From the IMG/VR virus record IMGVR_UViG_2582580966_000018: 18,422 bases of DNA. One strand, 5' to 3'. Origin of the DNA: a virus (Duplodnaviria; Heunggongvirae; Uroviricota; Caudoviricetes). Shown here piece by piece: positions 11,609-13,557 of the stretch. The notes beneath the pieces were generated by a model. That model made no database searches. It saw nothing but the letters and a program-made list of their open reading frames with translations, and was not told the origin of the DNA. Each line of letters opens with the position of its first letter. The first letter of the stretch is position 1. The position numbers and the translations under genes are program-made.

Positions 11609-11639
11609 TGCTCTTAAAAATTAAGCCCTGAAGAAGGGC
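11609..11639 (+). promoter_or_regulatory. nutL (boxA GCTCTTAAAAATTAA, boxB GCCCTGAAGAAGGGC)
   Basis: Matches lambda nutL as recalled; lies in the pL leader upstream of N. Confidence 0.85.
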
Positions 11640-11797: not shown

Positions 11798-12121
11798 ATG
11801 GATGCACAAACACGCCGCCGCGAACGTCGCGCAGAGAAACAGGCTCAATGGAAAGCAGCAAATCCCCTGTTGGTTGGGGTAAGCGCAAAACCAGTTAACC
11901 GCCCTATTCTCTCGCTGAATCGCAAACCGAAATCACGAGTAGAAAGCGCACTGAATCCGATAGACCTTACGGTGCTGGCTGAATACCACGAACAGATTGA
12001 AAGCAACCTGCAACGTATTGAGCGCAAGAATCTTCGAGTTTGGTATAGCAAGCCAAGTGAGTTCGGTATAACTTGTCAAGGAAGACAAAAGGTTAAAGGG
12101 AAATCCATTCCATTGGCATGA
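11798..12121 (+). CDS. N: Antitermination protein N
   Basis: MDAQTRRRERRAEKQAQWKAANPLLVGVSAKPVNRPILSLNRKPKSRVESALNPIDLTVLAEYH… matches lambda N with a few substitutions; includes the arginine-rich boxB-binding motif. The ORF-track upstream extension is rejected. Confidence 0.9.
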   Translation: MDAQTRRRERRAEKQAQWKAANPLLVGVSAKPVNRPILSLNRKPKSRVESALNPIDLTVLAEYHEQIESNLQRIERKNLRVWYSKPSEFGITCQGRQKVKGKSIPLA

Positions 12122-12129
12122 GGTACGTA

Positions 12130-12210
12130 ATGAAGAAAATTGATTACAAGTCCATACCAAAACCAATAGACTCAGCATCAGAGCGAAAAAAAACACAAAA
12201 AAGAGGCTGA
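12130..12210 (+). CDS. Possible small basic peptide, 26 aa (MKKIDYKSIPKPIDSASERKKTQKRG)
   Basis: ATG 6 nt after a GAGG that sits right at the N stop codon. Not in the ORF track because it is under 60 aa. Could be non-coding. Confidence 0.25.
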   Translation: MKKIDYKSIPKPIDSASERKKTQKRG

Positions 12211-12319
12211 AAAATTAGCAAATTATATCAGTTTTATTAGAAACAATGCTCACGGCGATGGCGACAGGAAGTTGCTTTCAGATGCCCGGACCCAAGCGTT
12301 CAGCATACTTCGTAAGCAG

Positions 12320-13000
12320 ATGCAATATCGTCTTCATCCAGGCTACATAATTGAAATTCGCCCGACTGAAAGACAATTGTTCTTATTAAACTCTGTCTTT
12401 GACTTTGTAAACGTAGTTGGAGATCTTATCGACAGGTCTGTAGATAAGGCTCCTGATACAAATAGTTTTCTTCTAACAAATAAAGAATACTTATATGGTA
12501 AATTTGGTATAAACGGATGGCAAAAATATGTACGATTCTTACGTGCATTCGTTGATGCGAATAAAAATTCCGACATGATTTATACATATTTGCCTGGTGG
12601 TAATAATTGTACGCTTTCGGCAGACAATAGAATATTCATACCTATACTTGGTCTTGGGCTGATTAATGCAGTAAATGAAAGAGATGTTATAATTGTTAAG
12701 CAGTGGCGAAAGCATGAGGGATATAGATATCTGCCATGCTTTGATATATTAAAAATACAGAATAAATTCTATGTAAAAATTAAATATAAAGAAGATGTTT
12801 TCTTCCTCAGAAAAAACAAAGATCTTTTACAAGAACTTTCTGGGACAATAGATGTCATCGTAGGTTCTAGGTTTATAAAAGAACTGAAAGAAAGCAGGTC
12901 TTTCTCTCGTGTAGAGATAAGCGAGTCAGAGTTATGGGGTATATCAAATAATCCTGTAAACCACGCTCACCAACGAAATCCAAACAAAAAGTGGTCATAA
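12320..13000 (+). CDS. Hypothetical protein, 226 aa (242 aa if the TTG at 12272 is used); AT-rich accessory gene in the sieB/ral position
   Basis: Long ORF in visibly AT-rich DNA between N and ea10. No TM segments or motifs I recognise. Start is uncertain. Followed directly by an intrinsic terminator. Confidence 0.55.
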   Translation: MQYRLHPGYIIEIRPTERQLFLLNSVFDFVNVVGDLIDRSVDKAPDTNSFLLTNKEYLYGKFGINGWQKYVRFLRAFVDANKNSDMIYTYLPGGNNCTLSADNRIFIPILGLGLINAVNERDVIIVKQWRKHEGYRYLPCFDILKIQNKFYVKIKYKEDVFFLRKNKDLLQELSGTIDVIVGSRFIKELKESRSFSRVEISESELWGISNNPVNHAHQRNPNKKWS

Positions 13001-13024
13001 CCCGCTCAGGCGGGTTTCATTTTC
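13000..13024 (+). terminator. Intrinsic terminator after the accessory gene
   Basis: aCCCGC-tcag-GCGGGt followed by TTCATTTTC. Confidence 0.6.
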
Positions 13025-13142
13025 ACGCAAACAACAGAATAAACACTGCACTGTGTATTCATTCCAACGAGTGAATACACGGAGCAATGTCGCTCGTAAC
13101 TAAACAGGAGTCGACTTGTTCTGATTATTGGAAATCTTCTTT

Positions 13143-13172
13143 GCCCTCCAGTGTGAGGGCGATTTTTTATCT
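13143..13172 (+). terminator. Intrinsic terminator upstream of ea10
   Basis: GCCCTC-cagtgt-GAGGGC followed by GATTTTTTATCT. Confidence 0.6.
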
Positions 13173-13188
13173 GTGAGGATATGAACAG

Positions 13189-13557
13189 ATGTCAAACATC
13201 AAAAAATACATCATTGATTACGACTGGAAAGCATCAATAGAAATTGAAATCGACCATGACGTAATGACAGAGGAAAAACTTCACCAGATTAATAATTTCT
13301 GGTCAGACTCTGAATACCGACTCAATAAACACGGCTCTGTATTAAATGCTGTATTAATCATGCTGGCGCAACATGCTCTGCTTATAGCAATTTCAAGCGA
13401 CTTAAATGCATATGGTGTTGTGTGTGAGTTCGACTGGAATGATGGAAATGGTCAGGAAGGATGGCCTCCAATGGATGGTAGCGAAGGAATAAGAATTACC
13501 GATATCGATACATCAGGAATATTTGATCCAGATGATATGACTATCAAAGCCGCCTGA
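13189..13557 (+). CDS. ea10: Ea10 (lambda early protein, 122 aa)
   Basis: Length and sequence consistent with lambda Ea10 as recalled; GAGGA Shine-Dalgarno upstream; position between the sieB/ral slot and cIII. Confidence 0.75.
   Translation: MSNIKKYIIDYDWKASIEIEIDHDVMTEEKLHQINNFWSDSEYRLNKHGSVLNAVLIMLAQHALLIAISSDLNAYGVVCEFDWNDGNGQEGWPPMDGSEGIRITDIDTSGIFDPDDMTIKAA

Follow-up and report, generated by a model that had tools for sequence, protein, structure and literature searches.

A frameshifted early-left gene of lambdoid phages whose intact product is a candidate Nun-type arrest factor with a predicted TnpB-like domain

The gene at positions 12130–13000 of the 18,422-nucleotide window (the whole stretch of viral DNA analysed) is an orthologue of CPT_434_48 of phage 434 and a member of phrog_12139. 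We propose that the locus is an inactivated early-left gene and that its intact product is a Nun-type arrest factor, which carries a new targeting domain and is expressed from pL together with N. We assign this reading a probability of about 0.55. As judged from the sequence and a predicted structure, the intact protein of 289 residues would consist of a basic helical hairpin, a REC lobe, a long helix with a disordered linker and, finally, a 14-residue Nun peptide. All features described below lie on the + strand.

The initial annotation had placed in this region a single gene of 226–242 amino acids, in AT-rich DNA and without a transmembrane segment. Such an ORF is present at 12272–13000, with 242 residues counted from a TTG codon and 226 from the ATG at 12320, and no other + strand ORF of at least 40 residues lies between N and ea10. 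However, it represents the 3′ portion of a gene of 870 nt and 289 residues that starts at ATG 12130. The ORF corresponds to residues 48–289 of the intact protein and matches the 289-position PHROG profile phrog_12139 over positions 48–289 (E 2e-169). Intact alleles, for example that of phage 434, are 870 nt long and encode 289 residues from an ATG equivalent to window position 12130, whereas the window gene spans 871 nt and is frameshifted. Deleting one A from it restores the full 289-residue reading frame. Upstream of the remnant, the frameshift leaves a 5′ fragment ORF at 12130–12210, which encodes MKKIDYKSIPKPIDSASERKKTQKRG and then stops. By its sequence, the ORF as read in the window is a pseudogene fragment. 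The original start remains recognizable: ATG 12130 lies 8 nt past the end of N and is preceded at a distance of 6 nt by a ribosome-binding site, GAGG (12120–12123), which overlaps the N stop codon TGA (12119–12121) and is annotated as such in phage 434. The window gene shares 99.8% identity with its intact counterpart in E. coli AR_0369, and its identity to the genes of phage 434 and E. coli overall ranges from 97 to 99.8%. Its GC content is indeed low (35%, compared with 46.5% in the whole window and 48% in N), falling to 32–33% in 400-nt windows, and the highest Kyte–Doolittle 19-mer average of the ORF is 1.38, in line with the absence of a transmembrane segment. The gene is carried by 83 of 5,426 complete E. 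coli genomes (about 1.5%).

The +1 frameshift site is an A8 homopolymer (12186–12193) within the N-terminal helical hairpin, at which intact alleles have A7. The A7 form was found in the 24 IMG/VR contigs examined and in the phage 434 and AR_0369 records. Among the sequences examined, A8 occurs only in the window, L043, L059 and L096. In all four copies it is accompanied by H79L in N and by Y144N (12560–12562), an AAT codon in place of the TAT of intact alleles, at an invariant column of the 290-residue family. A sequencing error as the source of the extra A was ruled out, as A8, Y144N and N H79L occur together in three independent viral contigs; the allele is therefore inherited rather than a read error. 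Each of the 83 gene-carrying complete E. coli genomes differs from the A8 form of a 76-nt test segment, and among the matches listed the best 10 of the 83 are 75-nt, single-gap alignments indicative of A7. Because the frameshift is combined with a substitution at an invariant residue, the window copy is probably inactive, and Y144N itself suggests decay. From the window allele we expect no more than traces of the full-length protein, or else a truncated product that is poorly initiated. Across about 33 viral contigs the gene has been disrupted independently at least four times, and the disruptions other than A8 are unrelated deletions or replacements. Such recurrence fits a costly gene. We also considered a clustering of damaging changes as a signal of selection and discarded it: the window and the AR_0369 prophage differ at 29 of 6,962 positions, and the 3 differences in the 1.2-kb stretch of N plus the gene are no excess.

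The last 14 residues of the protein, VNHAHQRNPNKKWS (residues 276–289; 12956–12997, with the stop codon at 12998–13000), match the HK022 Nun C-terminus, which enters the cleft of RNA polymerase, at all 14 positions. In both proteins the peptide forms the extreme C-terminus and follows a disordered stretch. Homology to HK022 DNA begins at about position 12955 and extends across the terminator, with an identity of about 96%. A motif can thus be assigned to the ORF, contrary to the earlier reading. The gene was not wholly undescribed either, since the GenBank record of phage 434 already labels its product 'Nun C-terminal peptide-containing protein'; a literature search found no paper on the phage 434 gene or on the GGLPSLGK motif of its distant homologues. 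HK022 Nun, which excludes lambda, halts E. coli RNA polymerase in translocation; the rpoC (beta′) substitutions R322H, D264G and D329G relieve its action. At high levels, Nun is toxic and non-specifically arrests complexes that lack nut RNA.

Sequence comparison revealed that the motif VNHAH.R...KKW is invariant in homologues of 42–68% identity. The invariant tail columns of the 290-residue family are V276, N277, H278, A279, H280, R282, K286, K287 and W288. Seven of them (N277, H278, H280, R282, K286, K287 and W288) align with Nun N97, H98, H100, R102, K106, K107 and W108, residues that have been mutated or shown to matter for arrest (PMC5386594), and the counterparts of V276 and A279 are V96 and A99. 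At its variable position, the tail aligns with Nun N103, the neutral control of the same mutational study (PMC5386594). In the polymerase complex, only Nun residues 87–109 are ordered, and they hold all known arrest determinants (PMC5386594). Between lineages L004 and L005, the tail shows 10 synonymous and no non-synonymous differences. Over the whole gene, dS is saturated and dN lies at 0.22–0.59. Saturated synonymous sites without tail replacements, together with the invariance of the functional Nun residues, argue for selection on the peptide and against a recent scar; at the level of these alignments, the tail is clearly under purifying selection. The tail is predicted to be disordered in the AlphaFold2 model, and would therefore be free to thread. 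The Nun segment 87–95, including H93 and R94, is not conserved in the present protein: its equivalents read WGISNNP, FIYGQA or LINDKA, whereas small Nun proteins keep (D/E)xM(H/F/N)xVV at this position. In Nun, H93 and R94 contact upstream DNA and help to bind the polymerase, and R94A strongly weakens this binding (PMC5386594). We infer the arrest activity of the intact protein from the 14 tail residues alone.

To model the remainder of the protein we used AlphaFold2 with an alignment of 31 sequences that included distant homologues, which gave a pLDDT of 78 and a pTM of 0.73; an earlier model from 4 sequences (pLDDT 47) was too poor for use. The confidently modelled domain comprises about 190 residues, with a topology of beta1, four helices and then beta strands. 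At the N-terminus, helices 16–37 and 43–65 form a basic hairpin (residues ~13–65; 12166–12325), and residues 1–69 carry a net charge of +9. It is followed by a predicted TnpB/Cas12-like REC lobe (residues ~66–222; 12326–12796), in which an OB-type WED beta-barrel receives a four-helix REC insert after beta1. This modelled topology agrees with the published description of the TnpB WED and REC domains (PMC10097598). Thereafter the model contains a long alpha-helix (residues 223–258; 12797–12904), whose C-terminal 'ES(K/R)S(F/Y)(S/A)RV(E/D)' motif is common to the distant family, and a linker predicted to be disordered (residues 259–275; 12905–12955), with pLDDT below 50 over residues 259–281. 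The best Foldseek matches are ISDra2 TnpB (probability 0.98) and TnpB-like 'transposases' of giant viruses. Alignment against real TnpB genes by hhalign with -M first gave P 9.5e-5 over 130 colinear columns and a score of 40.2, whereas 60 block-shuffled controls averaged 19.2 and did not exceed 26.9. The result depends on the match-state rule, as the similarity shrinks to 35 columns with P 0.018 under -M 50; the -M first result is therefore reported together with its matched controls. In this alignment the core is colinear with TnpB residues 1–164 and begins with a P-x3-Q-x3-L-x3-F-x-G-type motif.

The likeness to TnpB, Cas12 and Fanzor (IS200/IS605 OrfB) is one of REC-lobe architecture, together with the remote sequence similarity to TnpB. 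The alignment does not extend past about TnpB residue 169, and the D-E-D triad of RuvC is absent; the TNB zinc-finger domain is missing from both sequence and model, as is the C-terminal domain, and beyond residue 222 the model shows only the long helix and the disordered tail. Nor did we identify transposon ends, a TnpA or a guide RNA at the locus. Pfam OrfB_IS605 and HTH_OrfB_IS605 gave no match (family searched to E = 10, distant homologues to E = 1), and a sequence-level profile search of solved structures returned no TnpB or Cas12 chain. On the model, the core appears to be a TnpB/Cas12-type REC lobe without a nuclease lobe, its similarity to TnpB being remote. Our literature search found no nuclease-less REC-lobe form among the described TnpB derivatives. 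Near residue 18, some members have SRRRK or TRRAARK, and the 434 type reads SERKKHKK. To the eye this resembles the arginine-rich motif of Nun, but the likeness is not significant: hhalign of the first 45 residues against the small Nun proteins gave P 0.076 over 10 columns.

Distant homologues have the same core with another tail (...GGLPSLGKRR) and are found in BREX operons and in mobile elements of Betaproteobacteria. In two lineages they are located within BREX; in others their neighbours are DISARM-like or large helicase genes. A general link of this distant family to defence islands held only in part, since some neighbours are plasmid-maintenance or ordinary genes.

The gene belongs to the pL operon and adjoins the immunity region. 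Upstream are a lambda-type nutL boxB hairpin in the pL leader (11625–11639, GCCCTGAAGAAGGGC), with an equivalent nutL stem-loop annotated in phage 434, and a lambda-type N of 107 residues (11798–12121; Pfam N36, E 3e-26), which carries H79L in the window lineage. An intrinsic terminator (12999–13026; stem 12999–13016 and a T tract) lies directly 3′ of the gene and overlaps its stop codon; it is the first after pL, and the same terminator sequence is found 3′ of nun in HK022. A second one (13141–13172; stem 13141–13162 and T6), annotated in phage 434, precedes ea10. The bracketing by two terminators described earlier is thus borne out, and so is the assignment to the sieB/ral slot: the cassette 12122–13028 replaces the lambda accessory genes between N and a conserved segment upstream of ea10, of which 13029–13190 is common to lambda imm434 and many lambdoid phages. 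The genes ral and sieB occupy the same slot in the pL operon, whose content varies among lambdoid phages. By its profile matches the present protein appears distinct from ral-, sieB- and rex-type exclusion factors, and it is a non-membrane protein. Profile searches of the ORF yielded phrog_12139 and the Nun-like tail as its sole PHROG matches, whereas PADLOC, NCBIfam and Pfam gave no match for the ORF, the intact protein or the diverged homologues.

The 3′ flank of the gene was examined for a guide-RNA-like element, and none was identified. The strong folding of this flank (z −6.1) is accounted for by the two terminators and a hairpin, and from 13029 onward the flank consists of the segment that lambdoid phages share upstream of ea10, so it is not gene-specific. 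In a search of Rfam the sole match was the cIII thermoregulator, located elsewhere in the window, with no family at the gene. Repeats in the region are short and chance-like.

A lambda-type N immediately precedes the gene not only in E. coli but also in the L004 lineage, whose protein cluster has a Pantoea member, and in further lineages. In L005, the gene comes right after cI with no N called, similar to nun in HK022; the gap downstream of the gene measures 46 nt there, compared with 547 nt in L004. No terminator separates N from the gene in the window. Given the 8-nt spacing and the position of the first terminator after the gene, the protein should be co-made with N on the immediate-early pL transcript, as far as the sequence can tell. 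A consensus scan for a promoter active in lysogens found 5 promoter-like sites against 4.7 expected by chance. The arrangement points to immediate-early lytic expression rather than to a prophage-expressed defence. In HK022, in contrast, an N gene is missing, nun lies directly downstream of cI, and Nun is made constitutively in the repressed prophage.

These features enable us to propose a putative mode of action. The folded N-terminal part would bind a specific nucleic acid. A candidate ligand is the duplex DNA behind the polymerase, by analogy with the TnpB REC lobe, which binds the TAM duplex; alternatively, the ligand could be a structure within the nascent RNA. Binding would put the flexible tail at the upstream edge of the transcription elongation complex. 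Host or competing-phage complexes might then be arrested, whereas the phage's own N-modified complexes would be protected. The route of lambda N into the polymerase cavity has been described (PMC8632103). A bolder version, which we hold only tentatively, is that the protein represents a new class of TnpB exaptation. In this version a nuclease-less REC lobe, sequence-specific or perhaps RNA-programmed, would home to its target and deliver a polymerase-jamming peptide, with N serving as an antidote that acts in the same cleft.

Several other functions were weighed against the arrest factor co-expressed with N. The initial annotation favoured exclusion or defence, and an exclusion-type function is reasonable because the protein ends in the arrest peptide of the exclusion factor Nun. 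It could operate as in HK022, by low expression in the lysogen and arrest of a specific incoming phage recognised by the REC lobe. The accessory slot adjoining the immunity region, the L005 arrangement and the moron-like look of an AT-rich, terminator-bounded cassette would all suit such a role. Its anatomy does not support a Nun-like role in the prophage, however, because no lysogen-active promoter is evident: promoter-like sites are at chance level, the gene is apparently transcribed together with N from pL, a promoter kept repressed in lysogens, and no defence family, PADLOC included, was matched. We regard prophage exclusion as possible though doubtful. Slightly less probable in our estimate is an untargeted host shut-off, in which the tail would arrest any elongation complex once the protein builds up, or an antagonism of N that limits pL, with the folded domain serving only stability or dosage control. 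The arrest of complexes lacking nut RNA by concentrated Nun and its toxicity, the predicted immediate-early co-expression with N and the recurrent disruptions in prophages, which fit a toxic gene, would agree with it. Yet purifying selection on a conserved nucleic-acid-recognition fold of 150 residues is difficult to account for if the domain has no specific ligand, and no global shut-off of host transcription is known from lambda-type phages.

The tail might instead be a passive by-product of recombination, with the folded domain alone at work as a DNA-binding regulator or as an inhibitor or decoy of a defence system such as BREX. HK022 DNA homology starts exactly at the tail, which has the look of a recombination joint, and proteins with the same core and another tail occur in BREX operons and in defence or plasmid regions. 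This is improbable, however, as homologues of only 42–49% identity retain the tail, and the comparison of L004 with L005 and the invariance of functional Nun residues speak for selection on it. Less probable still, and to us hardly credible, is an on/off or dosage switch at the A-run, by which the A8 allele would leak a little of a full-length toxic factor through transcriptional or ribosomal slippage and so hold it at a level the cell can tolerate. The frameshift does sit in a homopolymer, with an A6 run 3 nt further on, and at least four sequences retain the A8 allele. Nevertheless, Y144N and N H79L are common to all four A8 copies, which therefore form one lineage rather than a record of repeated switching. 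The A8 test segment was matched by none of the 83 E. coli genomes with the gene, the remaining disruptions are of unrelated kinds, and Y144N suggests decay.

Compared with known systems, the proposed arrest factor differs from Nun chiefly in what precedes the shared peptide. Proteins of the Nun type have about 80–117 residues (about 109 in HK022 Nun, with no folded domain separating the RNA-binding motif from the tail), against 289 here, and small Nun-like relatives (phrog_5632) occur in HK75, mEp235, mEpX1, O276 and Stx1 phages. Nun uses a short arginine-rich peptide that binds boxB, in place of which the present protein appears to have the TnpB-like domain and the helical hairpin. Loss of cleavage and re-use in transcription or recruitment are known from TldR, the sigma-factor-associated TnpB, Cas12k and Cas12m (PMC10691335). 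These proteins retain a RuvC fold, albeit an inactivated one, together with a guide RNA, whereas the present protein is without a nuclease lobe and ends in the arrest peptide.

In summary, Nun is the textbook case of a polymerase stop by a peptide threaded into the active-site cleft, known with one targeting device, an arginine-rich RNA-binding peptide. The same peptide on a larger recognition module would make Nun-type arrest a portable effector, and a REC lobe minus its nuclease lobe would add a new form to the TnpB derivatives. That the gene is constantly paired with N suggests a possible scheme of self-versus-other discrimination at elongation complexes. Since phage 434 and about 1.5% of the complete E. 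coli genomes carry the gene, the proposal is testable with existing Nun-resistant polymerase mutants and assays. If the bolder version is true, the GGLPSLGKRR-tailed family would belong to a wider set of proteins that join a REC lobe to an effector tail, and HK022 Nun could be a minimal relative of this design.

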